Source: Escherichia coli | GTDB lineage: Bacteria; Pseudomonadota; Gammaproteobacteria; Enterobacterales; Enterobacteriaceae | DNA: 64,000 nt | NCBI RefSeq assembly: GCF_024298765.1 | Contig: NZ_CP101210.1 | Strand: one strand, 5' to 3' | In this document: in pieces, positions 1-23,977 of the stretch | How positions within the stretch are numbered: the stretch's first letter is position 1 | How the letters are laid out: every line of letters begins with the position of its first letter | The notes under the pieces: generated by a model | What the model was told of the DNA's origin: nothing | The model's input: the letters and a program-made list of their open reading frames with translations, nothing else | Database searches by the model: none | Program-made: the position numbers and the translations under genes

Positions 1-182
1 CCCCATTCAAGAACAGCAAGCAGCATTGAGAACTTGGGAATCCAGTCTCTCTTCCACCTGCTGATCTGCGACTTATCAACTCCCACAGCTTCCGCTGTCT
101 TCTCAGTTCCAAGCATTGCGATTTTGTTAAGCAACGCACTCTCGATTCGTAGTGCCTCGTTGCGTTTGTTTGCACGAACCAT
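1..182 (-). CDS. cII: Lambda CII transcriptional activator, N-terminal part only (gene runs off window start)
   Basis: Reverse-strand translation from ATG at 182..180 gives MVRANKRNEALRIESALLNKIAMLGTEKTAEAVGVDKSQISRWKRDWIPKFSMLLAVLEW. Confidence 0.9.
   Translation of the reverse strand, partial: MVRANKRNEALRIESALLNKIAMLGTEKTAEAVGVDKSQISRWKRDWIPKFSMLLAVLEW
160..173 (+). promoter_or_regulatory. pRE region: CII-binding direct repeat TTGC-N6-TTGC overlapping cII start
   Basis: ttgcgtttgtttgc on the strand antisense to cII; matches the known CII recognition motif. Confidence 0.6.
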
Positions 183-261
183 ATGTAAGTATTTCCTTAG
201 ATAACAATTGATTGAATGTATGCAAATAAATGCATACACCATAGGTGTGGTTTAATTGGAT

Positions 262-293
262 GCCCTTTTTCAGGGCGGGGATGGGTAAGAGCG
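262..293 (-). promoter_or_regulatory. nutR (boxA CGCTCTTAC, boxB GCCCTGAAAAAGGGC) between cro and cII
   Basis: Reverse complement of 262..293 reads cgctcttacccatccccgccctgaaaaagggc. Confidence 0.75.
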
Positions 294-300
294 GGGTTAT

Positions 301-510
<210 letters not shown>

Positions 511-527
511 TTAGTACATGCAACTAT

Positions 528-591
528 TATCACCGCCAGAGGTAAAATAGTCAACACGCACGGTGTTAGATATTTATCCCTTGCGGTGATA
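528..591. promoter_or_regulatory. Right operator OR1 (528..544), OR2 (551..567), OR3 (575..591) with divergent pR and pRM
   Basis: Three 17-bp sites tatcaccgccagaggta, caacacgcacggtgtta, tatcccttgcggtgata between cro and cI. Confidence 0.88.
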
Positions 592-598
592 GATTTAA

Positions 599-1315
<717 letters not shown>

Positions 1316-1442
1316 TAGGAAGTAAGTTTTATGTTGACGGCACAGTCAACTTGGCATAGATTAATTAAACCAAGCCCAGCCCCGTTCGCAGACAATTGTT
1401 AATATCTGCATAACGGCTCTGGGCTATTTTTTTGGGACTCTT

Positions 1443-2300
1443 ATGAAGAAAGCAGCAATTTTAATTGATGCGGGTTTTTTCATGCAGCGTGTTCATGCTA
1501 CGCATCGTAAACACTTCGCCGAGCATGAACTGACTGCGCAATGCATAATGAAAGTAATATGGTCAATGGTTCTTTCCCATCTTAATGGAAAACGTCAATC
1601 ACAAGAACGTAGGGAACCGCTTGAGCTTTATAGAATTTACTTCTATGACTGTCCACCACTCGACATTCAAACACGCCTTCCACTTCCTGAGCCTGGCAAT
1701 AAGACGCCTGGTCGCAAGAATTTCAAACTCGAAAAATCATATATTCTGAGAACGGAGCTGCATGAAGAGTTAAGAAAAACTCGAAAAACAGCCTTAAGAT
1801 TAGGGAATCTTGTTGATAATAAGCGATGGCAACTAACTACATTCTCCCTTGATGCTCTGATGAAAGGAACGAAAAAATGGGATGAACTGACAAATGATGA
1901 TTTTTACTATGACATCAAACAAAAACAAGTTGATATCAAGCTAGGGATGGATATCACGACTTTAGCTTATGAAAAACTTGTTGATGTAATTGTCCTTGTT
2001 GCTGGGGACTCAGACTTTGTGCCTGCCGCCAAACACGCCAGAATTAAAGGTATTGATTTTATTCTTGATCCACTAAGACAGAATGTTACCCCATCACTGT
2101 CAGAGCACATTGATGGAGTTCAGTCATACAGCTTGATATCAGGACTTGCCGATGCTTTACATGTTGAGCCAGACCCGGCACCTGACTGGTGGGAAGATCG
2201 AAAAAAAGGCAAGCCTAGGGGAAAAAACAATAGCGGTAAACGCAGGTATGGAAACACTCAAGCTGAGTCTGCAAAGAAACATCAAAGAAATAAACGATAA
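1443..2300 (+). CDS. NYN/LabA-like PIN-fold predicted nuclease with Lys/Arg-rich C-terminal tail; occupies the rexA-rexB position
   Basis: 285-aa ORF with ATG start; motifs AAILIDAGFF, VDIKLGMD and VLVAGDSDFVPAAKHARIKGIDFILD resemble NYN acidic motifs; does not match my recollection of RexA; AT-rich. Confidence 0.75.
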   Translation: MKKAAILIDAGFFMQRVHATHRKHFAEHELTAQCIMKVIWSMVLSHLNGKRQSQERREPLELYRIYFYDCPPLDIQTRLPLPEPGNKTPGRKNFKLEKSYILRTELHEELRKTRKTALRLGNLVDNKRWQLTTFSLDALMKGTKKWDELTNDDFYYDIKQKQVDIKLGMDITTLAYEKLVDVIVLVAGDSDFVPAAKHARIKGIDFILDPLRQNVTPSLSEHIDGVQSYSLISGLADALHVEPDPAPDWWEDRKKGKPRGKNNSGKRRYGNTQAESAKKHQRNKR

Positions 2301-2309
2301 TCCCATCAA

Positions 2310-2336
2310 CCCGGCCACCGAGCCGGGTTTTCTTTG
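2310..2336 (+). terminator. Rho-independent terminator after the NYN gene
   Basis: cccggc-caccga-gccggg hairpin followed by ttttctttg. Confidence 0.6.
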
Positions 2337-2491
2337 CCTCACGATCGCCCCACCTAAAAACACATAACCAATTGTATTTATTTTAAAATTAATAGGTGCA
2401 ACTCACTAAACAACGCAATTCTGATCTCTCGATCACCTCCCAAGCCACACAACCCTGCAAAAAATAAATCTATATAAAAAACATACAGATA

Positions 2492-2552
2492 ACCATCTGC
2501 GGTGATAAATTATCTCTGGCGGTGTTGACACAAATACCACTAGCGGTGATAC
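2492..2552 (+). promoter_or_regulatory. Left operator OL3 (2492..2508), OL2 (2511..2527), OL1 (2535..2551) with pL (-35 ttgaca 2525..2530, -10 gatact 2547..2552)
   Basis: aaccatctgcggtgata, tatctctggcggtgttg, taccactagcggtgata upstream of N. Confidence 0.88.
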
Positions 2553-2592
2553 TAAACACACCAGCAGGACGCACTAACCCACATGAAGGTGA

Positions 2593-2623
2593 TGCTCTTA
2601 AAAATTAAGCCCTGAAGAAGGGC
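2593..2623 (+). promoter_or_regulatory. nutL (boxA tgctcttaa, boxB gccctgaagaagggc)
   Basis: gatgctcttaaaaattaagccctgaagaagggc between pL and N. Confidence 0.8.
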
Positions 2624-2781
2624 AGCATTCAAAGCAGAAGGCTTTGGGGTGTGTGATACGAAACGAAACATTGGCCGGAAGTGCGAATCCGGATTAGCTG
2701 CAAATGAGCCAATCGTGGGGTGTTTTCGTTCAGGACTACGACTCCCACACACCACCAAAGCTAACTGACAAGAGAATCCAG

Positions 2782-3679
<898 letters not shown>

Positions 3680-3802
3680 TTAAAAGACAGGCATACTAAT
3701 AAACACTGCACTGTGTATTTATTCCAACGAGTGAATACACGGAGCAATGTCGCTCGTAACTAAACAGGAGCCGACTTGTTCTGATTATTGGAAATCTTCT
3801 TT

Positions 3803-3829
3803 GCCCTCCAGTGTGAGGGCGATTTTTTA
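3803..3829 (+). terminator. Rho-independent terminator upstream of ea10 (tL1-like)
   Basis: gccctc-cagtgt-gagggc hairpin followed by gattttttat. Confidence 0.5.
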
Positions 3830-3848
3830 TCTATGAGGATATGAATAG

Positions 3849-4217
3849 GTGTCAAACATCAAAAAATACATCATTGATTACGACTGGAAAGCATCAATAG
3901 AAATTGAAATCGACCATGACGTAATGACAGAGGAAAAACTTCACCAGATTAATAATTTCTGGTCAGACTCTGAATACCGACTCAATAAACACGGCTCTGT
4001 ATTAAATGCTGTATTAATCATGCTGGCGCAACATGCTCTGCTTATAGCAATTTCAAGCGACTTAAATGCATATGGTGTTGTGTGTGAGTTCGACTGGAAT
4101 GATGGAAATGGTCAGGAAGGATGGCCTCCAATGGATGGTAGCGAAGGAATAAGAATTACCGATATCGATACATCAGGAATATTTGATTCAGATGATATGG
4201 CTATCAAGGCCGCCTGA
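3849..4217 (+). CDS. ea10: Ea10-like protein (122 aa)
   Basis: GTG-initiated ORF MSNIKKYIIDYDWKASIEIEIDHDVMTEEKLHQINNFWSD...; position collinear with lambda ea10. Confidence 0.8.
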   Translation: MSNIKKYIIDYDWKASIEIEIDHDVMTEEKLHQINNFWSDSEYRLNKHGSVLNAVLIMLAQHALLIAISSDLNAYGVVCEFDWNDGNGQEGWPPMDGSEGIRITDIDTSGIFDSDDMAIKAA

Positions 4218-4289
4218 GTGCGGCTTTACCGCATACCAATAACGCTTCACTCGAGGCGTTTTTCGTTATGTATAAATAAGGAGCACACC

Positions 4290-4430
4290 ATGCAATATGC
4301 CATTGCAGGGTGGCCTGTTGCTGGCTGCCCTTCCGAATCTTTACTTGAACGAATCACCCGTAAATTACGTGACGGATGGAAACGCCTTATCGACATACTT
4401 AATCAGCCAGGAGTACCCAAAAATGGATAA
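4290..4430 (+). CDS. cIII: CIII (FtsH inhibitor), 46 aa here because of an in-frame TAA
   Basis: [46 protein letters not shown] then TAA at 4428..4430. Confidence 0.85.
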   Translation: MQYAIAGWPVAGCPSESLLERITRKLRDGWKRLIDILNQPGVPKNG

Positions 4431-4566
4431 AAAACTTATGGCTATCCAGACAAAATTCACTATTGCCACTTTTATTGGCGATGAAAAGATGTTTCGTGAG
4501 GCCGTCGACGCTTATAAAAAATGGATATTAATACTGAAACTGAGATCAAGCAAAAGCATTCACTAA
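4423..4566 (+). CDS. kil: Kil (host-killing, FtsZ inhibitor), 47 aa
   Basis: [47 protein letters not shown] overlapping cIII end and gam start as in lambda. Confidence 0.8.
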
Positions 4567-4937
4567 CCCCCTTTCCTGTTTTCCTAATCAGCCCGGCATT
4601 TCGCGGGCGATATTTTCACAGCTATTTCAGGAGTTCGGCCATGAACGCTTATTACATTCAGGATCGTCTTGAGGCTCAGAGCTGGGCGCGTCACTACCAG
4701 CAGATAGCCCGTGAAGAGAAAGAGGCAGAACTGGCAGACGACATGGAAAAAGGCCTGCCCCAGCACCTGTTTGAATCGCTATGCATCGATCATTTGCAAC
4801 GCCACGGGGCCAGCAAAAAAGCCATTACCCGTGCGTTTGATGACGATGTTGAGTTTCAGGAGCGCATGGCAGAACACATCCGGTACATGGTTGAAACCAT
4901 TGCTCACCATCAGGTTGATATTGATTCAGAGGTATAA
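4521..4937 (+). CDS. gam: Gam (RecBCD inhibitor)
   Basis: 138-aa [64 protein letters not shown]... Confidence 0.95.
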
Positions 4938-4942
4938 AACGG

Positions 4943-5728
4943 ATGAGTACAGCACTCGCAACGCTGGCAGGGAAGCTGGCTGAACGTGTCGGCATGGATT
5001 CTGTCGACCCACAGGAACTGATCACCACTCTTCGCCAGACGGCATTTAAAGGCGATGCCAGCGATGCGCAGTTCATCGCATTGTTGATCGTCGCCAACCA
5101 GTACGGCCTTAATCCGTGGACGAAAGAAATTTACGCCTTCCCTGACAAGCAGAACGGCATCGTTCCGGTGGTGGGCGTTGATGGCTGGTCCCGTATCATC
5201 AATGAAAACCAGCAGTTTGATGGCATGGACTTTGAGCAGGACAATGAATCATGTACATGCCGGATTTACCGCAAGGACCGTAATCATCCGATCTGCGTTA
5301 CCGAGTGGATGGATGAATGCCGCCGCGAACCATTCAAAACCCGCGAAGGCAGAGAAATCACCGGACCGTGGCAGTCGCATCCCAAACGGATGTTACGGCA
5401 TAAAGCCATGATTCAGTGTGCCCGTCTGGCCTTCGGATTTGCTGGTATCTATGACAAGGATGAAGCCGAGCGCATTGTCGAAAATACCGCATACACTGCA
5501 GAACGTCCGCCGGAACGCGACATCACTCCGGTTAACGATGAAACCATGCAGGAGATTAACACTATGCTGATTGCCCTGGACAAAACATGGGATGACGACT
5601 TATTGCCGCTCTGTTCCCAGATATTTCGCCGCGACATTCGCGCATCGTCAGAACTGACACAGGCCGAAGCAATGAAAGCTCTTGGATTCCTGAAACAGAA
5701 AGCCTCTGAACAGAAGGTGGCTGCATGA
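4943..5728 (+). CDS. bet: Bet (Red-beta single-strand annealing protein)
   Basis: 261-aa [69 protein letters not shown]... Confidence 0.97.
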
Positions 5729-6405
5729 CACCGGACATTATCCTGCAGCGTACCGGGATCGACGTGAGAGCTGTCGAACAGGGGGATGATGCATGGCACA
5801 AATTACGGCTCGGCGTCATCACCGCTTCAGAAGTTCACAACGTGATAGCAAAGCCCCGCTCAGGAAAGAAGTGGCCTGACATGAAAATGTCCTACTTCCA
5901 CACCCTGCTGGCTGAGGTTTGCACCGGTGTGGCTCCGGAAGTTAACGCTAAGGCGCTGGCCTGGGGAAAACAGTACGAGAACGACGCCAGAACCCTCTTT
6001 GAGTTCACTTCCGGCGTTAATGTTACTGAATCCCCGATCATCTATCGCGACGAAAGTATGCGCACCGCCTGCTCTCCCGATGGTTTATGCAGTGACGGCA
6101 ACGGCCTTGAACTGAAATGCCCGTTTACCTCCCGGGATTTCATGAAGTTCCGGCTCGGTGGTTTCGAGGCCATAAAATCGGCTTACATGGCCCAGGTGCA
6201 GTACAGCATGTGGGTGACGCGAAAAGATGCCTGGTACTTTGCCAACTATGACCCACGAATGAAGCGTGAAGGCCTGCATTATGTCGTGGTTGAGCGGGAT
6301 GAAAATTACATGGCGAGTTTTGACGAGATGGTGCCGGAGTTCATCGAAAAAATGGACGAGGCACTGGCTGAAATTGGTTTTGTATTTGGGGAGCAATGGC
6401 GATGA
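5725..6405 (+). CDS. exo: Exo (lambda exonuclease, Red-alpha)
   Basis: 226-aa [68 protein letters not shown]... Confidence 0.97.
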
Positions 6406-6584
6406 CGCATCCTCACGATAATATCCGGGTAGGCGCGATCACTTTCGTCTACTCCATTACAAAGCGAGGCTGGGTATTTCCCGGCCTTTCTGTTATCAGA
6501 AATCCCCTGAAAGCACAGCGGCTGGCTGAGGAGATAAATAATAAACGGGGAGCTGTATGCACAAAGCATCTCCCGTTGAGTTAA
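6396..6584 (+). CDS. Lambda orf60a-like small protein
   Basis: [58 protein letters not shown]... immediately after exo. Confidence 0.6.
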
Positions 6585-6748
6585 GAACGAGTATCGAGAT
6601 GGCACATAGCCTCGCTCAAATTGGAGTCAGGTTTGTGCCAATACCAGTAGAAACAGACGAAGAATTTCATACGTTAGCCGCATCCCTTTCACAAAAGCTG
6701 GAAATGATGGTGGCGAAAGCAGAAGCAGATGAGAGAGACCAGGTATGA
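6557..6748 (+). CDS. Lambda orf63-like small protein
   Basis: 63-aa [66 protein letters not shown]. Confidence 0.6.
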   Translation: MHKASPVELRTSIEMAHSLAQIGVRFVPIPVETDEEFHTLAASLSQKLEMMVAKAEADERDQV

Positions 6749-6824
6749 CAACCACTGAATGCATTTTTCTGGCAGCGGGCTTCATATTCTGTGTGCTTAT
6801 GCTTGCCGACATGGGGCTTGTTCA

Positions 6825-7040
6825 ATGACACCTCAGCAAGAAAACGCCCTTCGCAGCATTGCCCGTCAGGCTAATTCTGAAATCAAAAAAGCCAGACAGC
6901 AGTTTCCGGATAAAAACGTCGATGACATTTGCCGTAGCGTACTAAAGAAGCACCGCGAAACGGTAACGCTGATGGGATTCACACCGACTCATTTAAGCCT
7001 GGCGATCGGCATGTTGAACGGCGTCTTTAAGGAACGGTGA
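6825..7040 (+). CDS. Lambda orf61-like small protein
   Basis: ORF from ATG 6825 MTPQQENALRSIARQANSEIKKARQQFPDKNVDDICRSVLKKHRETVTLMGF...; start choice uncertain. Confidence 0.5.
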   Translation: MTPQQENALRSIARQANSEIKKARQQFPDKNVDDICRSVLKKHRETVTLMGFTPTHLSLAIGMLNGVFKER

Positions 7041-7138
7041 ACATGAAAAGCAAAATCATCAGGGAGCTACAGGCTCCTTTTTTATTATTCGCATTCACCC
7101 TCAAGCGTATTAACCAACAATTCAGGGATTAATGAAAG

Positions 7139-7360
7139 ATGGCAGACATCATTGATTCAGCATCAGAAATTGAAGAATTACAGCGCAACACAGCAATAAA
7201 AATGCGCCGCCTGAACCACCAGGCTATATCTGCCACTCATTGTTGTGAGTGTGGCGATCCGATAGATGAACGAAGACGCTTGGCCGTTCAGGGTTGTCGG
7301 ACTTGTGCAAGTTGCCAGGAGGATCTGGAACTTATCAGTAAACAGAGAGGTTCGAAGTGA
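7139..7360 (+). CDS. TraR/DksA-family C4 zinc-finger protein (lambda orf73-like)
   Basis: 73-aa ORF with CCECGDPIDERRRLAVQGCRTCASC four-cysteine finger. Confidence 0.8.
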   Translation: MADIIDSASEIEELQRNTAIKMRRLNHQAISATHCCECGDPIDERRRLAVQGCRTCASCQEDLELISKQRGSK

Positions 7361-7905
7361 GCGAAATTAACTCTCAGGCACTGCGTGAGGCGGCAGTAGC
7401 AATTGAAACAGTAGCAACACCTCAAAAATTGCTGGCATTTCGTATGAAAGTCACACCTCAGGTTGTGCTGGCTCTACTGGATGAACGAGATGCATTAAAT
7501 GAACGCCTAGCCGAACTGGAGGCTGATTTAGCAGGGCTGGCCGAAGACCACCAGAAAGCGACTGAGTCAATTAAGCAGGCTGATGCAGCTGTTAAGTTGG
7601 CACACGAGAAGTTTTCGGCGCTGGCGGCGGAGAATGAGCTGGCTCGTAAAGCAGTTCAGGAATTCTGCGATGTTGTTGGCGACAGCACCGAGGTTATCTG
7701 CGAGGAGATTGGGAGAGATGGTGTTCTGGTTATTTTGGAGGCCATGAAGGCAACAGGAAATATGCCAGCCACCGATGCTTTCCTGGCTGAAGTACGGGCG
7801 CAGGGGGTGGAGATGATGCGCGAACATCCATCAATCAAACTTTGCTCTTTGACGCACATATGTGATGAGTTAGCCGCCCAGCTTCGCAAAGGAGGCAACC
7901 AGTGA
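7357..7905 (+). CDS. ea22: Ea22-like protein (182 aa, coiled-coil)
   Basis: 182-aa ORF collinear with lambda ea22; MSEINSQALREAAVAIETVATPQKLLAF... Confidence 0.7.
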   Translation: MSEINSQALREAAVAIETVATPQKLLAFRMKVTPQVVLALLDERDALNERLAELEADLAGLAEDHQKATESIKQADAAVKLAHEKFSALAAENELARKAVQEFCDVVGDSTEVICEEIGRDGVLVILEAMKATGNMPATDAFLAEVRAQGVEMMREHPSIKLCSLTHICDELAAQLRKGGNQ

Positions 7906-8035
7906 CTGGACATGCAGCAATCCTCGACATGTGCTGTGGCAGTCGCATGTTCTGGTTAGATAAGAATGACGAACGGGCGAGATAAGCGATCGGTTAAGTG
8001 CTATAGTAATGCGCTTTTGTATTTATGGAGTGAAT

Positions 8036-8734
8036 ATGAAAAATATCCTACTGGCATCATTGTTAGTGGCATCGCCGGGTGCATTTGCAGCCAGCTTTGA
8101 CTGCCAAAAGGCTTCGACAGCAATCGAACATAAAATCTGCGATAACGAACGTCTGTCAAAATTAGACGAACAGCTTAGCTCTGCCTATTCTAGTGCCCTC
8201 AAAGGAAACCCAGAGAACGCAGACACCCTAAAAATGGTTCAACGTCAGTGGGTAAATATGCGTGGAAAACTCACTGATAATAAGGCTCTGGAGCTGGCTT
8301 ATCTTATCCAAATTAATGGCCTCAAAGGTTTGGGGAGTTCAGTCAGCGTAACAGCGGCCAATGACATACCCACGTCGGCGCAGAAACATTCTAAAGAGCA
8401 GGAAGATACAAGTAAGGCAGAAGCTAAGTCGGTCAAGAACGGCAATAAGCTAACCTTAGAGTCATTCCGAGCTAAATATGTAGAAGTAGATGGTGAGTAT
8501 TACAGCACGACATCCATTCCTAGAGGCAGTTCGTTCTTGTTCACTTGCGCTAGTCGTATTGCTGATGACCAAGTGAATATTTGGAAGAAACAGGCAGCCA
8601 AAGAGGGCAAAATCGACCTATTCTTTGAGGTTGAGAATCACTTACACACGGCTATGTTGAACGCCAATTTTCAGAAGTTGAATTCAGACCCTGCCAAAAG
8701 AGGTATTTGTAATCTGATTAACGCAGTGCCGTAA
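8036..8734 (+). CDS. Secreted protein with signal peptide and DUF1311/LprI-like N-terminal domain; replaces ea8.5
   Basis: MKNILLASLLVASPGAFAASFDCQKASTAIEHKICDNERLSKLDEQLSSAYSSALKG...QRQW; GGAG RBS before ATG 8036. Confidence 0.7.
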   Translation: MKNILLASLLVASPGAFAASFDCQKASTAIEHKICDNERLSKLDEQLSSAYSSALKGNPENADTLKMVQRQWVNMRGKLTDNKALELAYLIQINGLKGLGSSVSVTAANDIPTSAQKHSKEQEDTSKAEAKSVKNGNKLTLESFRAKYVEVDGEYYSTTSIPRGSSFLFTCASRIADDQVNIWKKQAAKEGKIDLFFEVENHLHTAMLNANFQKLNSDPAKRGICNLINAVP

Positions 8735-8744
8735 GTAAATTTAG

Positions 8745-8775
8745 GGCCACAGTTGTGGCCTTAAATATTTTTTTC
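8745..8775 (+). terminator. Putative rho-independent terminator after the DUF1311 gene
   Basis: ggccac-agtt-gtggcc hairpin followed by T-rich run. Confidence 0.45.
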
Positions 8776-8970
8776 AGCCTTTTCTTATTTGTAATAAGCA
8801 GTACTTGGTAGTGCTTATAAAACAGAATAAAAAATATATGACTTTGGCGATTACCCAGTAAAGATATTCGAAATAAATGTAAATATCGACAATGAATAAC
8901 TATCCTCGCACTCGCGGGGATTTCTTTTATCTGAACTCGCTACGGCGAGTTTTTTTTATGGAGATGATAA

Positions 8971-9138
8971 ATGCACTTCCGAGTCACAGGTGAATGGAAT
9001 GGAGAACCATTCAACAGAGTTATCGAAGCCGAGAACATCAGCGACTGCTATGACCACTGGATGCTGTGGGCGCAGATAGCACATGCAGACGTAACCAATA
9101 TTCGAATTGAAGAACTGAAAGAACACCAAGCCGCCTGA
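8971..9138 (+). CDS. Lambda orf55-like small protein (below 60-aa ORF-track cutoff)
   Basis: MHFRVTGEWNGEPFNRVIEAENISDCYDHWMLWAQIAHADVTNIRIEELKEHQAA; collinear with lambda orf55 upstream of xis; followed by gccgcc..ggcggc hairpin + T-run. Confidence 0.65.
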   Translation: MHFRVTGEWNGEPFNRVIEAENISDCYDHWMLWAQIAHADVTNIRIEELKEHQAA

Positions 9139-9177
9139 TGGCGGTTTTTTCTTGCGTGTAATTGCGGAGACTTTGCG

Positions 9178-9396
9178 ATGTACTTGACACTTCAGGAGTG
9201 GAACGCACGCCAGCGACGCCCAAGAAGCCTTGAAACAGTTCGTCGATGGGTACGCGAGTGCAGGATATTCCCTCCTCCGGTTAAGGATGGAAGAGAGTAT
9301 CTGTTCCACGAATCAGCGGTAAAGGTTGACTTAAATCGACCAGTAACAGGTAGCCTTTTGAAGAGGATCAGAAATGGGAAGAAGGCGAAGTCATGA
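9178..9396 (+). CDS. xis: Excisionase Xis
   Basis: 72-aa ORF MYLTLQEWNARQRRPRSLETVRRWVRECRIFPPPVKDGREYLFHESAVKVDLNRPVTGSLLKRIRNGKKAKS. Confidence 0.96.
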   Translation: MYLTLQEWNARQRRPRSLETVRRWVRECRIFPPPVKDGREYLFHESAVKVDLNRPVTGSLLKRIRNGKKAKS

Positions 9397-10444
9397 GCGC
9401 CGGGATTTACCCCCTAACCTTTATATAAGAAACAATGGATATTACTGCTACAGGGACCCAAGGACGGGTAAAGAGTTTGGATTAGGCCGAGACAGGCGAA
9501 TCGCAATCACTGAAGCTATACAGGCCAACATTGAGTTATTTTCAGGACACAAACACAAGCCTCTGACAGCGAGAATCAACAGTGATAATTCCGTTACGTT
9601 ACATTCATGGCTTGATCGCTACGAAAAAATCCTGGCCAGCAGAGGAATCAAGCAGAAGACACTCATAAATTACATGAGCAAAATTAAAGCAATAAGGAGG
9701 GGTCTGCCTGATGCTCCACTTGAAGACATCACCACAAAAGAAATTGCGGCAATGCTCAATGGATACATAGACGAGGGCAAGGCGGCATCAGCCAAGTTAA
9801 TCAGATCAACACTGAGCGATGCATTCCGAGAGGCTATAGCTGAAGGCCATATAACAACAAACCCGGTCGCAGCCACTCGCGCTGCAAAATCAGAGGTAAG
9901 GAGATCAAGACTTACGGCTGACGAATACCTGAAAATTTATCAAGCAGCAGAATCATCACCATGTTGGCTTAGACTTGCAATGGAACTGGCTGTTGTTACC
10001 GGGCAGCGAGTTGGTGATTTATGCGAAATGAAGTGGTCTGATATCGTAGATGGATATCTTTATGTCGAGCAAAGCAAAACAGGCGTAAAAATTGCCATCC
10101 CAACAACATTGCATGTTGATGCTCTCGGGATATCAATGAAGGAAACACTTGATAAATGCAAAAAGATTCTTGGCGGAGAAACCATAATTGCATCTACTCG
10201 TCGTGAACCGCTTTCATCCGGCACAGTATCAAGGTATTTTATGCGCGCACGAAAAGCATCAGGTCTTTCCTTCGAAGGGGATCCGCCTACCTTTCACGAG
10301 TTGCGCAGTTTGTCTGCAAGACTCTATGAGAAGCAGATAAGCGATAAGTTTGCTCAACATCTTCTCGGGCATAAGTCGGACACCATGGCATCACAGTATC
10401 GTGATGACAGAGGCAGGGAGTGGGACAAAATTGAAATCAAATAA
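9374..10444 (+). CDS. int: Integrase Int (tyrosine recombinase)
   Basis: 356-aa ORF MGRRRSHERRDLPPNLYIRNNGYYCYRDPRTGKEFGLGRDRRIAITEAIQANIELFSG... overlapping xis end. Confidence 0.97.
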   Translation: MGRRRSHERRDLPPNLYIRNNGYYCYRDPRTGKEFGLGRDRRIAITEAIQANIELFSGHKHKPLTARINSDNSVTLHSWLDRYEKILASRGIKQKTLINYMSKIKAIRRGLPDAPLEDITTKEIAAMLNGYIDEGKAASAKLIRSTLSDAFREAIAEGHITTNPVAATRAAKSEVRRSRLTADEYLKIYQAAESSPCWLRLAMELAVVTGQRVGDLCEMKWSDIVDGYLYVEQSKTGVKIAIPTTLHVDALGISMKETLDKCKKILGGETIIASTRREPLSSGTVSRYFMRARKASGLSFEGDPPTFHELRSLSARLYEKQISDKFAQHLLGHKSDTMASQYRDDRGREWDKIEIK

Positions 10445-10532
10445 TGATTTTATTTTGACTGATAGTGACCTGTTCGTTGCAACAAATTGATAAGCAATGC
10501 TTTTTTATAATGCCAACTTAGTATAAAAAAGC
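10445..10532. other. attL: P' arm plus 15-bp core (10518..10532, ttagtataaaaaagc = reverse complement of GCTTTTTTATACTAA)
   Basis: Sequence downstream of int matches lambda P' arm and core, followed by bacterial attB flank aggcttca. Confidence 0.9.
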
Positions 10533-10578
10533 AGGCTTCAACGGATTCATTTTTCTATTTCATAGCCCGGAGCAACCT

Positions 10579-11862
10579 GTGAACACATTTTCAGTTTCCC
10601 GTCTGGCGCTGGCATTGGCTTTTGGCGTGACGCTGACCGCCTGTAGCTCAACACCGCCCGATCAACGTCCTTCTGATCAAACCGCGCCTGGTACCTCTTC
10701 TCGCCCGATTCTGTCGGCAAAAGAAGCGCAGAATTTCGATGCTCAACACTATTTTGCATCCCTGACACCAGGTGCGGCAGCGTGGAATCCTTCCCCGATT
10801 ACCCTGCCTGCACAACCTGACTTTGTTGTCGGCCCGGCGGGTACTCAAGGTGTAACGCATACCACGATTCAGGCGGCGGTAGATGCGGCAATTATCAAGC
10901 GTACCAACAAGCGCCAGTATATTGCCGTGATGCCTGGTGAGTATCAGGGAACGGTATATGTCCCTGCCGCTCCGGGTGGAATTACTCTGTACGGTACAGG
11001 TGAAAAACCGATTGATGTGAAGATTGGGCTTTCCCTTGATGGGGGCATGAGCCCTGCCGACTGGCGTCACGACGTCAACCCGCGCGGCAAATATATGCCA
11101 GGTAAACCAGCGTGGTATATGTACGATAGCTGCCAGAGCAAACGCAGCGACAGTATCGGCGTTCTCTGCTCTGCGGTCTTCTGGTCACAAAACAATGGAC
11201 TGCAACTGCAAAACCTGACCATCGAAAACACGCTGGGCGATAGCGTAGATGCGGGTAACCATCCGGCGGTGGCACTGCGTACTGATGGTGACCAGGTACA
11301 GATTAACAACGTTAACATTCTCGGTCGTCAGAACACCTTCTTTGTCACCAACAGCGGTGTGCAGAACCGTCTGGAAACGAATCGTCAGCCGCGTACGCTG
11401 GTGACCAACAGCTACATTGAAGGGGATGTGGATATCGTTTCTGGTCGCGGCGCAGTGGTGTTCGATAATACCGAATTCCGCGTGGTGAACTCACGTACTC
11501 AGCAAGAAGCGTATGTGTTTGCACCGGCTACGCTGTCCAACATTTACTACGGTTTCCTCGCCGTAAACAGTCGTTTCAATGCTTCCGGTGATGGCGTGGC
11601 GCAACTGGGCCGCTCGCTGGATGTTGATGCCAATACCAACGGTCAGGTGGTGATCCGTGATAGCGCCATCAACGAAGGTTTTAACACAGCCAAACCGTGG
11701 GCTGATGCGGTGATTTCCAATCGTCCATTCGCGGGTAACACCGGCAGCGTTGATGATAACGACGAAGTACAGCGCAATCTGAATGACACTAACTACAACC
11801 GCATGTGGGAATACAATAACCGCGGCGTGGGTAGCAAAGTGGTTGCAGAGGCGAAGAAGTAG
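10579..11862 (+). CDS. ybhC: YbhC outer-membrane lipoprotein (pectinesterase-like acyl-CoA thioesterase)
   Basis: 427-aa ORF with lipoprotein signal MNTFSVSRLALALAFGVTLTACSS; GTG start. Confidence 0.9.
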   Translation: MNTFSVSRLALALAFGVTLTACSSTPPDQRPSDQTAPGTSSRPILSAKEAQNFDAQHYFASLTPGAAAWNPSPITLPAQPDFVVGPAGTQGVTHTTIQAAVDAAIIKRTNKRQYIAVMPGEYQGTVYVPAAPGGITLYGTGEKPIDVKIGLSLDGGMSPADWRHDVNPRGKYMPGKPAWYMYDSCQSKRSDSIGVLCSAVFWSQNNGLQLQNLTIENTLGDSVDAGNHPAVALRTDGDQVQINNVNILGRQNTFFVTNSGVQNRLETNRQPRTLVTNSYIEGDVDIVSGRGAVVFDNTEFRVVNSRTQQEAYVFAPATLSNIYYGFLAVNSRFNASGDGVAQLGRSLDVDANTNGQVVIRDSAINEGFNTAKPWADAVISNRPFAGNTGSVDDNDEVQRNLNDTNYNRMWEYNNRGVGSKVVAEAKK

Positions 11863-11875
11863 GAGCTGTTAACTA

Positions 11876-11992
<117 letters not shown>

Positions 11993-12002
11993 ATGGCGCT
12001 TT

Positions 12003-14264
12003 TTACATCTGACGGTTTTTATTGAAGTTAATCAAACTACCCGCCTTGATAATCTCGCGCTCTTCAGCAGTCAGACTTTCCATATAGAGCGTAATCTCCG
12101 TTACCGGTGCATCTTCATGGATCACATAACCTTTAAACGTCGTTCCAGGATTATCCAGCGCCGCTTTAATGCCAGGGATGTAAATGTAATCCCCCACTTC
12201 AAACGTTGGTGCTTCCGCCATTTGCAGCGGTAACATCCCCCAGTTGATGACGTTAGAACGGTAGCGTTTAGTCGCGTATTCCTCGGCAATATTCGCCAGA
12301 CCGCCAATCACACGCTGGCAGCTCGCCGCCTGCTCACGCGCAGAACCATCGCCTGGTTTCACCGCATAGACCATGCTGCCAATTTCAGTTTGCAGCGGAT
12401 CAATATGCTCCTGACCAGCAATCTGCTTAATGCGCGCAAACACCTCTGTCAGCTCGCTGACATTCCCCGCCAGACGCTGATTTTCCAGCTCAGCAGTCGC
12501 TTTACTTCTGCCAACATAACCGGGATCGCGGCGTGACAGGGTAAACTCCGCCAGACCAATCGGATTTGAACGATAAGAAGAGGTTTCACCGGAAGGAATC
12601 AGTTCGTCGGTGGTGGTGACTTCGTCGAGGATCTTCGAGCACACTTTGAGGACGATATTGTCAGTCAGCGCGCCCAATTCCGGCCAGTCTTTGATGTTCG
12701 GTCCGTAGATCAGCGGTTGCTGGGTCGCCCCTTTCACAAAGCCTTGATAGACGCGATTTTTATACGGCGTTACATCGAAGGCGTACTCCGGCACGTTGTC
12801 CCAGCAATCGAGTTCGCTGGCAGAGGTTAAATAGCCACCGTTTGCCGCAGTTGCAGCGATAGAACGAGCGTCCATCAACGCCACCGCTGACATCTGCCCA
12901 TTAGCTGGCTTAGAGCCTTCGCGGTTCGGGAAGTTACGCGTGGTGTGGCGAATACTCAAACCGTTGTTGATTGGCGTATCGCCCGCACCAAAGCATGGGC
13001 CGCAGAACGCGGTTCTGATGATTGCGCCTGCGCCAATCAAATCTGCTACCACACCTTTTTTGGCGAGATCCATAAACACCGGCTGTGATGACGGGTAAAC
13101 CGCCAATGAGAAGGTATCGTTGCCGCAGGATTGACCGCGCAGCGCATTCGCCGCCGCGATGACGTTTTCGTAGTTACCGCCAGAACAGCCCGCGATAATC
13201 CCCTGCTGCACTTTCAGGCGACCATTTTCCACTTTATCCAGCAGCGAGAGTTTGGCTTTACCGTGCGCCACGCGTTCGGACTCAATTTCAATCTCACGCA
13301 GAATGTCGGTCAGGTTCTGGTTCAGCGTGTCGATTTCATACACGTTGCTCGGGTGGAATGGCAGCGCAATCATTGGTTTGATGGCGCTTAAATCAACGCT
13401 GATGCAGCCATCGTAGTACGCCATTGGTTGAGGGTTAAGTTGGCAGTAATCCTGGCCGCGACCGTGCAGCGCCAGCCAGTTATGGACTTCTTCATCGGTT
13501 TGCCAGACAGAACTTAAACAGGTCGTTTCAGTGGTCATCACGTCAACGCTGTTACGGAAATCGGTAGAGAGCGCTGCAACACCGGGACCTACGAACTCCA
13601 TCACTTTGTTTTTGACGTAACCGTTTTTGAACACGGCACCGATGATAGCCAGCGCCACATCCTGCGGCCCCACATACGGCGCAGGTTTTCCGGTCAGATG
13701 CACCGCAACCACGCCCGGATAGTCGATATCCCAGGTGTCATTAAGCAGCTGTTTTACCAACTCGCCGCCGCCCTCGCCAACCGCCATTGTCCCTAACGCA
13801 CCGTAACGGGTATGGCTGTCTGACCCGAGGATCATTTTGCCGCCGCCCGCCATCATTTCACGCATATATTGATGGATGACCGCAATATGCGGTGGCACAA
13901 AAATACCGCCATAACGCTGGGCCGCCGATAAACCAAAAACATGGTCATCACCGTTAATGGTGCCGCCCACAGCACAGAGTGAGTTATGGCAGTTGGTCAG
14001 CACATACGGCAGCGGGAAACGTTCCATACCGGACGCTTTAGCGGTCTGTACAATACCAACAAAGGTAATATCGTGAGAGGCTAATGAATCAAACTTAATT
14101 TTAAGTTTATCCATATTTCCGGACGTATTATGAGAAGAGAGAATAGACCAGGCAATAGTGCCTTTTTTTGCTTCTTCTTTTTTTATTTCGCCGGTGAAAT
14201 GTTCTTCGGCAATTATTTCGTTATTGCTGGCGAGAAACACGCCTTTTTCAGATAACTTGATCAT
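12003..14264 (-). CDS. ybhJ: YbhJ aconitase-family protein
   Basis: Long ORF, aconitase-like; start taken at ATG giving [16 protein letters not shown] (753 aa). Confidence 0.85.
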
Positions 14265-14446
14265 CAAATGCTCCAGATATCTGCGCACCGTGAAGTGCGC
14301 AGAAAGATAATAAATGGATATACTCTAAATAATTCGAGTTGCAGGAAGGCGACAAGCGAGTGAATCCCCAGGAGCTTACATAAGTAAGTGACTGGGGTGA
14401 GCGAACGCAGACGCAGCACATGCAACTTGAAGTATGACGAGTATAT

Positions 14447-15880
14447 TTACAGCATGTTCCAGCCGATCAGCATATTCCACCACCACACGCCGAGGGTGAT
14501 ATGCACCAGGAAGGTTAATATCGTCAGTACCGCACCGACCAACCACCAGGATTTAATATCGTTGTAACCCACGCCAAAGATGACCGGACCTGCCGCGCCG
14601 CCATAGTGAGTAACCATGCCGCCATAGGAGTTAGAGAACAACAGTGCCAGCGCGGTTAACATTAACGGTGCGCCGGAGACATTCGCCAGCATGGCAAATA
14701 CCGGTAACATGGCAACGATATAGGCACTACCAGAAGCGAAGAAATAACGCACGATGATGCTGAGGAAAATAATAACGAAGAAAGCAACGTTACCGTGACC
14801 ATCAAATGCCAGGTTATTTTTAAAGACTTCAGCTAACCATTCGAAGAATTTAACTTTCGATAATAAGGAGCTTAAGCCGATAATACCGCCGTACCAGATT
14901 AAGGTATTCCAGCCGCCTTTATTTTTAACCACGTCTTCCCAGGTAACGATACCCAGCAGCAGCATAGTTGCCATAACAACGATTGCCACGGTGGATTCAT
15001 CAACCCCCAGAGACTTACTGAAAATCCAGCCCAGCAGCGCCAGCACAAAGACACCGAGCAGCATTTTTTCGCGGATTTTCATCGGTCCCAGTTCGGCAAG
15101 GCCCGCTTTAGCGATGGTTTTGTTATCCACCTTCTTAATTTCTGGTGGATACATGGTGTAAATCACCAGCGGGGTGACCAGCAGCATAATGATGCCCGGC
15201 AATCCGGCGGCTAGCGCCCATCCACCCCAGCTAATTTGCAGGTGCAGAATGTCGTTGATCATTTTCAGCGCCAGAATGTTCCCCGCCATTGCGGTAAAGA
15301 ACATATAGCTGGTGGTTTTAGTGACCATGTAAATGGACATCATCAGGTAATGTCCAACACGACGCGGACTTTTTTCCGGTTCTGATCCCAAAGCCACTGC
15401 CACGCTGTTGATGATCGGTAACACGATGCCGCCCGCACGCGCGGTGTTAGACGGTGTTGCCGGAGCCAGTACCAGATCGAGAAATACCGTAACGTAACCC
15501 AGACCCAGGGTAGTGCTACCAATTTTACCAATCAGCAGATAGGCAATACGTTTACCTAAGCCTGTGGTTACAAACGCGGCGCTTAAAGTAAACGCAGAAA
15601 ACACCAGCCAGGTGGTACCGGAAGAGTAACCGCTTAATACGGCGGTGGTTTTAAATTCCCCACCTGATAAGTTACCCACCACTACCATCGATGCGGCGAC
15701 GGCAATTAACAGTACGACAGGTTCCGGGAAAGGCTTGATAACCAGCCCCACAATGGCCGCCAGGTAAATACCAAAAAGCACCCACGCCAGTTCGCTTAAT
15801 CCTGCCGGAGCTGGCATAAAGCCAATAATACATGGGATCGCTAATATCAGAATTAGCTTCCATAACGATTTTTTATTCAT
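14447..15880 (-). CDS. ybhI: YbhI DASS-family anion transporter
   Basis: 477-aa polytopic membrane ORF. Confidence 0.88.
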   Translation of the reverse strand: MNKKSLWKLILILAIPCIIGFMPAPAGLSELAWVLFGIYLAAIVGLVIKPFPEPVVLLIAVAASMVVVGNLSGGEFKTTAVLSGYSSGTTWLVFSAFTLSAAFVTTGLGKRIAYLLIGKIGSTTLGLGYVTVFLDLVLAPATPSNTARAGGIVLPIINSVAVALGSEPEKSPRRVGHYLMMSIYMVTKTTSYMFFTAMAGNILALKMINDILHLQISWGGWALAAGLPGIIMLLVTPLVIYTMYPPEIKKVDNKTIAKAGLAELGPMKIREKMLLGVFVLALLGWIFSKSLGVDESTVAIVVMATMLLLGIVTWEDVVKNKGGWNTLIWYGGIIGLSSLLSKVKFFEWLAEVFKNNLAFDGHGNVAFFVIIFLSIIVRYFFASGSAYIVAMLPVFAMLANVSGAPLMLTALALLFSNSYGGMVTHYGGAAGPVIFGVGYNDIKSWWLVGAVLTILTFLVHITLGVWWWNMLIGWNML

Positions 15881-15955
15881 TTAATATCCTGTTCTTTCTG
15901 TATGACTCATACAGAATTCCTTTATTGATTGTCATTATCACGACAACAAAATTTT

Positions 15956-17008
15956 TCAGGGAAGATAAACTTCACCGGAAAATATTTTTCTTGTCGTCCG
16001 AATAACAGATGCGCGTAACGTCGTGGCATCCTGACCTTCATTACTTAAATGAACGTCGAGCGCACCACTGGGGTGTTCAATATTGATATTGCCGTATCCT
16101 ACAGAAGGGACGATTTGTCGGGTGACGGTGCCTTCCAATGCACAACTACAGGAAATAGCAATAGCACCGGTTATCGCCAAAGCGCGATGGCAAGAATGCG
16201 GCATAAAATAACGCACATTAATTGCCCCGCCTTTCTGCGCTGGAGAAATAAGTACAGGTTTAGGGATAACCATATTACTGACATCGCCTAAGCCCATTGC
16301 TTTACCCGCTTGTAGACGGATAGATTCAATGCTGGCTAATAATGCTTTGTCGGCATCCAGCTCTGCCGGTAATTCATAGCCTGTTTTTCCCAGATATTCA
16401 GCAGGAATAATGACAACTGGCATCGCCATATCGATACAGGTCACCGGGACATCGTCAAAATAATCAATCTGATTATCCGTCGGGAAGACTTTTCCGGTTT
16501 TCGTTCCGGCGGCATTCAGGAAAGTGAGCGCAACCGGTGCGGCAGTACCCGGTACGCCGTCAATTCTGGCGCTACCCTCGTACTCGACAACACCATTTGG
16601 CGTTTGCACATCAGCTTCGATAAACGTACCCGTATTGACGTTGCGGATACGTACGCGGGTAACTGGCGAAGTCGCTGCAATCAAACCATTTTCAATGGCG
16701 AATGCCCCAACGCCAGACAGCATATTGCCGCAGTTAGGCGTGGTATCGACACGTTGCTCATGGACGATAACTTGAGCAAACAGATAATCGACATCTGCAC
16801 GCGGATCGCTGGAGCGGCTAATAATGGCGACTTTACTGGTCAGCGGATTACCGCCGCCAATACCGTCAATTTCCAGATCGTTACCGGAACCCATAATTGC
16901 CATCAATATTTTATCGCGCTGCGTTTGATCTTCGGGTAGATGTTCCGCTAACAGGAACGCGCCCCTCGAGGTTCCACCTCGCATCATCACGCAGGGTATT
17001 TTTTTCAT
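15956..17008 (-). CDS. ybhH: YbhH (PrpF/AcnD-accessory isomerase family)
   Basis: 350-aa ORF MKKIPCVMMRGGTSRGAFLL... Confidence 0.88.
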   Translation of the reverse strand: MKKIPCVMMRGGTSRGAFLLAEHLPEDQTQRDKILMAIMGSGNDLEIDGIGGGNPLTSKVAIISRSSDPRADVDYLFAQVIVHEQRVDTTPNCGNMLSGVGAFAIENGLIAATSPVTRVRIRNVNTGTFIEADVQTPNGVVEYEGSARIDGVPGTAAPVALTFLNAAGTKTGKVFPTDNQIDYFDDVPVTCIDMAMPVVIIPAEYLGKTGYELPAELDADKALLASIESIRLQAGKAMGLGDVSNMVIPKPVLISPAQKGGAINVRYFMPHSCHRALAITGAIAISCSCALEGTVTRQIVPSVGYGNINIEHPSGALDVHLSNEGQDATTLRASVIRTTRKIFSGEVYLP

Positions 17009-17191
17009 AATAATGCCCTCAATTTAAAAACATAACTTATTGCGATATGGTTACATTAAGGGCAAAGCATCTCTAATGACTTTAGCTCAACGATTAATAA
17101 CATTTTTTCATTAATTTAAGTTGGCTAAATGCAGTTAAAATTTTTAACTGCCAGTCACCCAAAATCGTCGCTTCCATTTTCCGGAGTAATA

Positions 17192-18145
17192 ATGAAGCAT
17201 GAATTATCAAGTATGAAGGCATTTGTCATACTGGCAGAGTCCAGTTCATTTAACAATGCTGCTAAATTACTCAATATTACGCAACCTGCATTAACGCGAA
17301 GAATAAAAAAGATGGAGGAAGATTTACACATTCAACTATTTGAGCGTACAACTCGCAAGGTTACGTTAACAAAAGCAGGAAAAAGGTTGCTCCCGGAGGC
17401 GCGGGAATTAATAAAAAAATTCGATGAAACGCTTTTTAATATTCGTGATATGAATGCTTATCATCGTGGTATGGTGACGTTAGCGTGTATTCCGACCGCA
17501 GTATTTTATTTTTTACCGCTGGCAATCGGTAAATTTAATGAGCTGTATCCCAATATTAAAGTGCGGATTCTGGAACAAGGCACGAATAATTGCATGGAAT
17601 CGGTGCTGTGTAACGAATCAGACTTTGGCATAAACATGAACAACGTCACAAATTCATCCATTGATTTTACCCCACTGGTCAACGAGCCGTTCGTGCTGGC
17701 CTGTCGGCGTGACCATCCATTGGCCAAAAAGCAGCTTGTAGAATGGCAGGAGTTAGTGGGTTACAAAATGATTGGCGTACGCTCCTCCAGCGGCAACCGA
17801 CTATTGATAGAACAACAGCTAGCCGACAAGCCCTGGAAGCTGGACTGGTTTTACGAAGTGCGTCATCTTTCGACGTCATTAGGGCTGGTGGAGGCGGGAC
17901 TGGGGATTTCGGCGCTTCCTGGTCTGGCAATGCCCCATGCGCCCTATTCTTCGATTATTGGTATCCCGCTGGTGGAACCGGTTATACGTCGGACATTGGG
18001 GATTATTCGCCGCAAAGATGCCGTGCTTTCTCCGGCAGCTGAACGCTTTTTTGCCTTGCTGATTAATTTGTGGACTGACGATAAAGACAATTTGTGGACC
18101 AATATCGTCGAACGCCAGAGACATGCGTTACAGGAGATAGGTTAA
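17192..18145 (+). CDS. ybhD: YbhD LysR-family transcriptional regulator
   Basis: HTH LysR N-terminus MKHELSSMKAFVILAESSSFNNAAKLLNITQPALTRRIKKMEE; divergent from ybhH. Confidence 0.88.
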   Translation: MKHELSSMKAFVILAESSSFNNAAKLLNITQPALTRRIKKMEEDLHIQLFERTTRKVTLTKAGKRLLPEARELIKKFDETLFNIRDMNAYHRGMVTLACIPTAVFYFLPLAIGKFNELYPNIKVRILEQGTNNCMESVLCNESDFGINMNNVTNSSIDFTPLVNEPFVLACRRDHPLAKKQLVEWQELVGYKMIGVRSSSGNRLLIEQQLADKPWKLDWFYEVRHLSTSLGLVEAGLGISALPGLAMPHAPYSSIIGIPLVEPVIRRTLGIIRRKDAVLSPAAERFFALLINLWTDDKDNLWTNIVERQRHALQEIG

Positions 18146-18185
18146 TACACCGGCGCAGAAGAGACTGCGCCGGGTAAATCAGCGG

Positions 18186-19217
<1,032 letters not shown>

Positions 19218-19335
19218 CTAAAATTAGTCGCTTTTGGCGGTGAATGCTGAATTAAAACGCAGAATTTTGTCCGATAGTGGTATCGGTGTACCATTCGCGC
19301 AGACGAAAATTCTTAACCTTAATCTGGAATACGCC

Positions 19336-20154
19336 ATGACCACACGCGTGATTGCTCTCGACTTAGACGGCACCTTATTGACCCCGAAAAAGACCTTGCT
19401 TCCATCATCGATAGAAGCCCTGGCCCGCGCTCGCGAAGCAGGCTATCAATTAATCATCGTCACAGGTCGCCATCACGTCGCTATTCATCCTTTTTATCAG
19501 GCGCTGGCGCTGGATACACCTGCTATTTGCTGTAATGGCACCTATTTGTATGATTATCATGCAAAAACTGTGCTGGAAGCGGACCCAATGCCTGTTAACA
19601 AAGCCCTGCAACTCATTGAGATGCTGAATGAACACCACATTCACGGTCTGATGTATGTGGATGATGCGATGGTTTATGAGCACCCGACCGGACATGTCAT
19701 TCGCACGTCTAACTGGGCGCAAACCCTGCCGCCGGAACAGCGTCCGACTTTCACACAAGTCGCTTCTCTGGCTGAAACGGCGCAACAAGTTAACGCCGTA
19801 TGGAAGTTCGCCCTGACGCACGATGACCTGCCGCAATTGCAGAATTTTGGTAAGCATGTCGAACATGAACTGGGACTGGAGTGTGAATGGTCCTGGCACG
19901 ATCAGGTTGATATTGCACGCGGCGGCAACAGCAAAGGTAAACGTTTGACGAAATGGGTTGAGGCGCAAGGCTGGTCGATGGAAAACGTCGTGGCCTTCGG
20001 CGATAACTTCAATGATATTAGTATGCTGGAAGCCGCTGGTACAGGCGTGGCGATGGGCAACGCCGATGACGCAGTAAAAGCGCGCGCCAACATTGTGATT
20101 GGTGATAACACCACCGACAGCATTGCCCAGTTCATTTATAGCCACCTGATTTAA
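19336..20154 (+). CDS. ybhA: YbhA HAD-family pyridoxal phosphate phosphatase
   Basis: MTTRVIALDLDGTLL HAD motif; 272 aa from internal ATG of the 306-aa track ORF. Confidence 0.88.
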   Translation: MTTRVIALDLDGTLLTPKKTLLPSSIEALARAREAGYQLIIVTGRHHVAIHPFYQALALDTPAICCNGTYLYDYHAKTVLEADPMPVNKALQLIEMLNEHHIHGLMYVDDAMVYEHPTGHVIRTSNWAQTLPPEQRPTFTQVASLAETAQQVNAVWKFALTHDDLPQLQNFGKHVEHELGLECEWSWHDQVDIARGGNSKGKRLTKWVEAQGWSMENVVAFGDNFNDISMLEAAGTGVAMGNADDAVKARANIVIGDNTTDSIAQFIYSHLI

Positions 20155-21213
20155 TCAGGCGGTTATCGACACACTTTTAATTTGCGCATACAGCCACAGG
20201 CCAGGTTTGATCGCCAGTTCATCCCTGGCCCACGGGCTGATACGCGCCCACAGCGTTTTACCGCCGACTTCCAGCTCCACTTCCACCTGGCCGTTGTCGT
20301 CATAACTATTAACAACTTTTGCCCGCAATACGTTACGAATGCTGGTTTGCTGTGGCGGTTGTAAAACCAGCGAGACATCGGAAGCCTGAATGCGGATGCG
20401 TAGCGCAGCTTGCAGCGGTTCGTCCAGCTTATTGACCCACAAATGCTGATCGCCCAGCGCCAGCGCGGTCATCGCGTAATGCGGATGATGCTCAAGTACT
20501 GTCACTTTCAGAATGCTACTTTGTTGCTCTTTCGGTAGCCACGGATTCATCACGCTACTACCCCAGACTTCTTCCAGCGCGCCAAAGGCTTTCACCTGAC
20601 CGTTTTCCAGTACCATCACTCTGTCTGCCAGATGGAGGATTTCATCCAGCGAATGGCTGACATACAACATCGGAATGTTGATTTCCCGCGTCAGACGTTG
20701 CAGATAAGGCAACAGTTCGCGTTTACGCGGAATATCCAGTGACGCCAGCGGTTCATCCAGCAACAGCAATTCCGGTGCTGTCAGCAAAGCCCGACCAATC
20801 GCCACGCGCTGTTTTTCGCCTCCGGACAGGCTGCCTGGTAAACGTTCAAGCAACGGTTCAATGCCTAAAAGCGCCACCAGCTTATCGAACTGATTGACCA
20901 TGCTTTTCGCCATGCCGTAGCGCAGATTGCCACGCACTTTGTAATGCGGGAACAGCCGCGCATCCTGAAAAACATAGCCAACGCGACGCTTTTCCGGCGA
21001 CAGGCAGATACCTTTTTCGGCATCATTTAGTACCCGACCATTGAGGACAATCCGCCCTTTTTGCGGACGTGTCAGTCCACTGATGGCGTTAATCAGCGAA
21101 GTTTTTCCGGCACCGGAGACGCCAAAGATAGCAGTTATGCCATTGGCGGGCAGCGTTTCATCAATGGTCAGGCAATGGTTGCCCAACGTCTGGGAAAAAT
21201 TCAGTTCCAGCAT
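20155..21213 (-). CDS. modC: Molybdate ABC transporter ATPase
   Basis: 352-aa ORF with Walker [10 protein letters not shown] and TOBE domain. Confidence 0.93.
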
Positions 21214-21215
21214 GA

Positions 21216-21905
21216 TTAGCGCCCTGCCCGTTCACGGCTGATTCTGGCCAGCCATTCTGAAATCAACAGGGAGATCATCGCCAGCGCAATAGAAATAATG
21301 CACAGTCTCGCCGCGCCACTTTCCCCGCCGGGGGTCTGGATCAGGGTATACATGGCAGAAGGAATGGTTCGCGTTTCACCAGGAATGTTCGACACAAAGG
21401 TGATGGTTGCACCAAACTCACCGAGAGAACGAGCAAAAGCCAGTACCGTACCAACAATAATGCCCGGTAAGGTCAGCGGTAACGTGATAGTAAAGAAAAC
21501 GCGCCAGCGCCCGGCACCCAGTGTTCTTGCGGCCTGTTCCAGTTTGATATCAACACCTTCCAGCGCCAGACGAATTGCCCGCACCATCAGCGGAAACGAC
21601 ATAACGGCGGCAGCGAGAACCGCGCCGCGCCAGCTAAAGGCGAAGGTAATGCCAAACCAGTCATACAGACGTTCACCGATAAATCCGCGCCGTCCCATCG
21701 AAACTAATAATAAGTAACCGACGACCACGGGCGGTAACACCAGCGGTAGATGCAGTACGCTGTCGAGCAGAGCTTTGCCCGGAAACGTGCAACGCACCAG
21801 TAACCAGGCAAAAAAGATCCCAAACGGCAGGCTAAACAGCACAGCCAGGGAAGAAACTTTCAGGCTTAATAAAACTGCCTGCCATTCTGGATCAGTCAGT
21901 ATCAT
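21216..21905 (-). CDS. modB: Molybdate ABC transporter permease
   Basis: 229-aa membrane ORF. Confidence 0.93.
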
Positions 21906-22678: not shown

Positions 22679-22692
22679 TGGTAACCCCTTAA

Positions 22693-22843: not shown

Positions 22844-23011
<168 letters not shown>

Positions 23012-23910: not shown

Positions 23911-23977
23911 GCGTGTTGACAATTTGTTATGAAACACGTATCCCTGTCAGTAATCGCTGCACAAAATGGGATATAAA

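Follow-up and report, generated by a model that had tools for sequence, protein, structure and literature searches.

The window, that is, the whole stretch of 64,000 nucleotides of Escherichia coli DNA that was analysed, begins in the early region of a lambdoid prophage and passes into bacterial DNA at an attachment site next to ybhC. The segment 10445..10578 was found to be exactly the spacer between int and ybhC, composed of 73 nt of P' arm, a 15-nt core and 46 nt of bacterial DNA; the int stop codon occupies 10442..10444, and the GTG start codon of ybhC stands at 10579, 46 nt from the core. The gene order of the prophage arm in the window is the 5' part of cII, cro, cI, an NYN-domain gene, N, cIII, kil, gam, bet, exo, an ea22-like gene, an LprI-like gene, xis, int and the P' arm. 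With its first base inside cII, the window contains neither the genes for replication nor the late genes, and attR too lies beyond it. The features considered below are the following.

1..10532, no strand assigned: left (early) arm of the prophage, by match to phage ev099 and in blocks to lambda, annotated from a near-identical genome
1443..2300, plus strand: NYN-domain (nuclease-like) gene, a continuous 285-aa open reading frame in place of rexAB, between cI and pL
3098..3601, minus strand: 167-aa open reading frame in the position of lambda sieB, with no Pfam or PADLOC match
8009..8734, plus strand: gene of the LprI family (lysozyme-inhibitor-like), in place of the lambda ea8.5 region
9178..9396, plus strand: xis, excisionase, 72 aa (Pfam Exc, E = 3.9e-41)
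9374..10444, plus strand: int, lambda-type tyrosine integrase, 356 aa, by Pfam domains and lambda comparison
10441..10451, minus strand: P'3 arm-type Int site, overlapping the int stop codon, identical to lambda
10452..10461, minus strand: P'2 arm-type Int site, identical to lambda
10462..10471, minus strand: P'1 arm-type Int site, identical to lambda
10480..10492, minus strand: H' IHF-binding site TATCAATTTGTTG, which fits WATCAANNNNTTR, identical to lambda
10514..10522, plus strand: C' core-type Int site, plus-strand reading CAACTTAGT, identical to lambda
10518..10532, minus strand: common core GCTTTTTTATACTAA, 15 bp, exact match
10521..10527, minus strand: 7-bp overlap TTTATAC, the strand-exchange region within the core
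10526..10534, minus strand: B core-type Int site CTGCTTTTT, identical to attB of K-12
10533..10578, no strand assigned: bacterial B-arm flank, the 5' untranslated region of ybhC, identical to K-12 MG1655
10579..11862, plus strand: ybhC, outer-membrane lipoprotein with a pectinesterase-like fold, 427 aa (Pfam Pectinesterase), annotated in near-identical genomes and in K-12

In the bacterial part of the window, a tetratricopeptide-repeat gene was observed between cydA and sucD (~47202..48317, minus strand), followed by ~1.3 kb with no annotated gene. In K-12, mngR, mngA and mngB presumably lie between sucD and cydA, and the locus in the window looks like a strain-specific replacement.

The core and its two parent sequences

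The lambda core is present as a single copy in the 64-kb window, on the minus strand, and no second copy was found there even when two mismatches were allowed; the number of exact matches expected by chance from base composition was 0.00012. The parentage of the flanks was evaluated in a five-way alignment of the reverse complement of the window, lambda attP (core at 27724..27738 of NC_001416), ev099 attP, the empty attB of K-12 MG1655 (core at 807328..807342, between ybhC and ybhB) and the attR of a relative, after which the mismatches were counted directly. The core was found to be identical in lambda attP, ev099 attP and K-12 attB. On the minus strand, the core and the next 313 nt (328 nt in total) match lambda from position 27724 on with zero mismatches, a stretch that contains C', the H' IHF site, P'1 to P'3, the P' arm and the 3' end of int. 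On the ybhC side, the core and 120 nt (135 nt in total, running into ybhC) are identical to the attB region of K-12 MG1655, and the empty K-12 site can be aligned with the bacterial flank of the window position by position. Compared with the arms that an Int-mediated junction would have exchanged, both flanks stayed at the random level: the ybhC side matched the lambda P arm at 18 and the ev099 P arm at 23 of 100 bases, and the int side matched the K-12 B' arm at 26 of 100 bases. Such a switch of parent precisely at the core marks a B-O-P' junction, and by its sequence the site is a BOP' (attL) hybrid.

These comparisons bear out the initial annotation, which had described an intact attL at attB-lambda beside ybhC, in which the core separates the P' arm and int from the ybhC flank. 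Its placement of the prophage at the canonical lambda site agrees with the K-12 alignment and with the published position of attB between ybhC and ybhB, and its statement that attR and the late region lie outside the window is confirmed by the single core and by the start of the window within cII. The same annotation had taken the site to mark the exact prophage boundary; the junction does fall at the core, but it is precise only to the 15-bp identity block, since strand exchange would occur somewhere within the 7-bp overlap. The base at 10532 is G on the core strand, the same as in attB, which is consistent with a crossover inside the overlap.

The protein-binding sites of the P' side are complete, C', H' and P'1 to P'3 all being present with the sequence and spacing found in lambda. 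The exact lambda arm-type sequences AAAATCATTAT, CAGTCAAAAT and AGGTCACTAT were located on the minus strand within 10441..10471; the names of the sites follow the lambda literature (e.g. PMC4880445), and the sequences of P'1 to P'3 are those established for the lambda att site. The adjoining integrase contains the lambda-integrase Arm DNA-binding domain (Arm-DNA-bind_1, E = 7e-33) and the Phage_integrase catalytic domain (E = 3e-40), and differs from lambda Int in four residues, H164P, A245T, I248V and E264K. None of these differences touches the catalytic residues of lambda Int, R212, K235, H308, R311, H333 and Y342. Xis has one amino-acid difference from lambda Xis (G59S). The cognate int and xis next to attL are both intact.

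Affinities of the prophage

Against Escherichia phage ev099 (NC_049953.1), the arm showed 3 mismatches in 10,532 positions, and the similarity ended exactly at 10532. The gene content of ev099 is the same from cII to the att core, including the NYN-domain and LprI-like genes, although ev099 is a free-phage record that carries this arm with attP (P-O-P') and is placed in the genus Radostvirus in the record taxonomy, whereas the window holds attL. A literature search for 'ev099' returned irrelevant papers only. Lambda accounts for 70% of the arm, with 97% identity, and matches it in five blocks of 87-98% identity; Cro is identical to its lambda counterpart and cI differs from it in four amino acids. 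The prophage is accordingly classed, by its lambda-type cI and cro, as a member of the imm-lambda group, and its architecture is that of a mosaic lambdoid with lambda int/xis/att and cI/cro modules. The candidate that it represents phage lambda itself (Lambdavirus lambda) was rejected, given the 70% coverage, the replacement of rexAB by the NYN-domain gene and of the sieB/ral and ea8.5 regions by other genes, and the best match to ev099, a phage of another genus according to its record. The attL of a lambda lysogen (BOP', between gal and bio) nevertheless shares with this site the core, C', H', P'1 to P'3 and the 3' end of int over the 328 nt, as well as the K-12 B side over the 135 nt, with int adjoining attL on the gal/ybhC side in the same orientation.

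The three genes that replace lambda genes were also scanned with PADLOC. The NYN-domain protein gave weak matches (E = 2e-4 and 1.4e-3), and the other two gave none. In the annotation of relatives made by PGAP, the NYN-domain reading frame appears as a truncated pseudogene and a short CDS, while the ev099 record has one full-length gene.

Partner attR and the history of the prophage

When positions 1..25000 of the window were compared by megablast with 5,426 complete E. coli genomes, no perfect match was found, the best match having 2 mismatches. The genome of FDAARGOS_1287 differs from the window at 7 of 64,000 positions (the whole window), and that of strain 104 at 1 of the 6,924 positions of the overlap that was compared. 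In both, the prophage runs on through O, P, the nin region, Q, lysis, head and tail genes and the b region, and ends with attR beside ybhB and bioA. The initial annotation had tied its reading to a second core copy and a prophage right arm elsewhere in the genome, and in the two closest genomes attR and right arm are indeed both present; from these relatives we infer that the prophage of the window would have an attR and a right arm of its own.

The attR cores of the relatives (10726..10740 of locus L003 and 2972..2986 of locus L006) read ACTTTTTTATACTAA and match the attL core at 14 of 15 positions, with the 7-bp overlap intact. The variant is the first base of the core (A for G), outside the overlap and on the phage-inherited side of attR, and it turns the C site from the lambda CAGCTTTTT into CAACTTTTT. 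The variant C site fits the core-type consensus CAACTTNNT better than that of lambda does. The P arm at attR has the lambda length and is identical to lambda at 154 of 185 positions, the P2, H1 and H2 motifs standing where lambda has them and the P1 sequence being conserved, as judged by eye. This P arm was observed to differ from that of both lambda and ev099, while the P' side is identical to both, and the ev099 core starts with G, whereas the attR core of the relatives starts with A. On the B' side of the relatives' attR, one SNP was seen with respect to K-12, CTTTAGCG instead of CTTGAGCG.

In both relatives, a PICI-like element of ~11 kb was observed inside a head gene of the same prophage, outside the window. 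In FDAARGOS_1287 it lies in the portal gene (~26481..37293 of locus L006) with a 13-bp identity block, and in strain 104 it interrupts the major capsid gene near codon 80 (~16523..27829 of locus L002), with a 10-bp identity block. These elements encode an integrase, a regulator, a primase, SSB, a capsid protein and a decoration protein; a small terminase is added in the FDAARGOS_1287 copy, and DUF262 and HEPN genes in the strain 104 copy. The capsid E position and 10-bp block of strain 104 are those of the published E:Phage_cap_E:80 site of helper-embedded PICIs; portal-gene (B) sites have been published as well, the portal site of FDAARGOS_1287 not being matched to a specific type (PMC10111431). 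The idea that these satellites are a novelty was rejected on this basis, although the published model composite (PMC10111431) sits at icd, whereas the composites of the relatives sit at attB-lambda. The late region of the relatives' prophage (41717..44882 of locus L006) also includes iss, a serum-survival gene that stands at the position of bor, and, between Q and the lysis genes, a gene for a porin; as lambdoid accessory genes, the two are typical of avian-pathogenic lineages.

Taken together, the single core, the identities of 328 and 135 nt, the switch point, the binding sites, Int and Xis, the attR of the relatives, the free-phage record of ev099, the population and the literature are best explained if 10441..10534 is an intact attL made by a lambda-type phage whose Int recombined attP with the primary attB-lambda between ybhC and ybhB, the prophage being a lambda-immunity mosaic near ev099; this reading is very probable on the sequence comparisons, at roughly 0.94. 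The contrary idea, a core that matches by chance or a secondary (non-canonical) att site, finds nothing in its favour but the AT-richness of the core, and it was rejected as scarcely credible in view of the 0.00012 exact matches expected and of the hundreds of flanking bases that equal lambda P'/int on one side and the K-12 attB flank on the other, the empty K-12 site aligning throughout. A genuine attL at the end of a defective, locked-in prophage, so that the junction would be a relic without productive excision or phage release, is unlikely, although more can be said for it. The portal gene of FDAARGOS_1287 or the major capsid gene of strain 104 is split by the satellite, IS1 and transposase fragments lie in the b region beside attR in both relatives, and the attR core is one base off the attL core. 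Nevertheless, attL and the genes int, xis, cI and cro are intact and nearly identical to their lambda counterparts, the attR of the relatives retains the 7-bp overlap and the P-arm sites, and the core variant falls outside that overlap and leaves a C site that matches the consensus CAACTTNNT. Moreover, the satellites are flanked by the 13-bp and 10-bp identity blocks, and the one composite of this kind that has been studied by induction excised precisely as a whole, the satellite being excised afterwards (PMC10111431).

A slightly less likely alternative concerns the order of events, namely that an older lambda-type prophage took attB and that its interior was later swapped by homologous recombination with lambdoid phages, so that attL was inherited and the int/att module and the rest would have separate histories. 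The mosaicism of the arm with respect to lambda, in which blocks of 87-98% identity alternate with unrelated inserts, would suit such a history, as would the P arm of the relatives' attR, which departs from lambda and ev099 where their P' side does not, and the A-for-G core variant, which is absent from ev099. However, an arm of 10.5 kb that is only 3 positions off ev099, with the similarity stopping at the core, is what simple Int-mediated integration predicts, and the alternative bears on history only, the identity and working of the site being unchanged by it.

Excision, transcription and occurrence

The working of the site can be proposed from lambda. In the lysogen, attL would be passive (PMC4880445). 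Upon induction, the N-terminal domain of Int would bind P'1 and P'2 while C-terminal domains occupy the core sites B and C', and the bending of the DNA by IHF at H' would allow one Int to bridge an arm site and a core site (PMC4880445). The attL complex would then pair with an attR complex of Int, Xis, IHF and Fis, and strand exchange in two ordered pairs, at either edge of TTTATAC and by way of a Holliday junction, would yield the circular phage genome (attP) and a restored attB (PMC4880445). This mechanism is carried over from established lambda biology (Landy and colleagues; PMC4880445) and would apply here by likeness. Excision is plausible, since int, xis and attL are intact. Nevertheless, the ability of the prophage to form plaques is uncertain because of the satellite-split head gene and the IS1 and transposase remnants in both relatives.

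Whether the attL and attR of the source strain bracket a nested helper-satellite composite, with a PICI in the portal or capsid gene, appears evenly balanced. If they do, Int/Xis recombination at attL would excise and mobilise the satellite along with its helper, and the helper would need precise excision of the satellite before it could assemble heads. On induction, the source strain may in that case not yield a simple plaque-forming phage, and the composite would at most be a further example of a known arrangement (PMC10111431), located at attB-lambda.

The junction was also scanned for promoters and terminators. No terminator-like site was found in 10300..10700 and therefore none between int and the co-oriented ybhC, and the one promoter-like site in this interval, inside the 3' end of int, scored no better than shuffled sequence. 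Integration of lambda shifts sib/tI to the attR end, away from int. As no terminator-like site separates int from ybhC, transcription from the phage could run on into ybhC upon induction. Beyond 46 nt upstream of the start codon of ybhC, all DNA is replaced by the prophage, and the transcription of ybhC may be affected by the prophage, either through loss of upstream promoter DNA or through read-through from pI/pL.

The feature is a textbook attL, already known as such, and the finding bears on no open question. Its practical value is that the prophage boundary is fixed within a 15-bp block, that the integration module is that of lambda, and that int, xis and attL are intact. The lambda attB between ybhC and ybhB is among the island-abundant (genomic-island) integration loci studied in Escherichia (PMC3467070, PMC9580842). 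The int-attL-ybhC junction was found in 1,498 of the 5,426 complete E. coli genomes, counted where at least 80% of a 5-kb query was covered, which illustrates how common the occupation of attB-lambda is.
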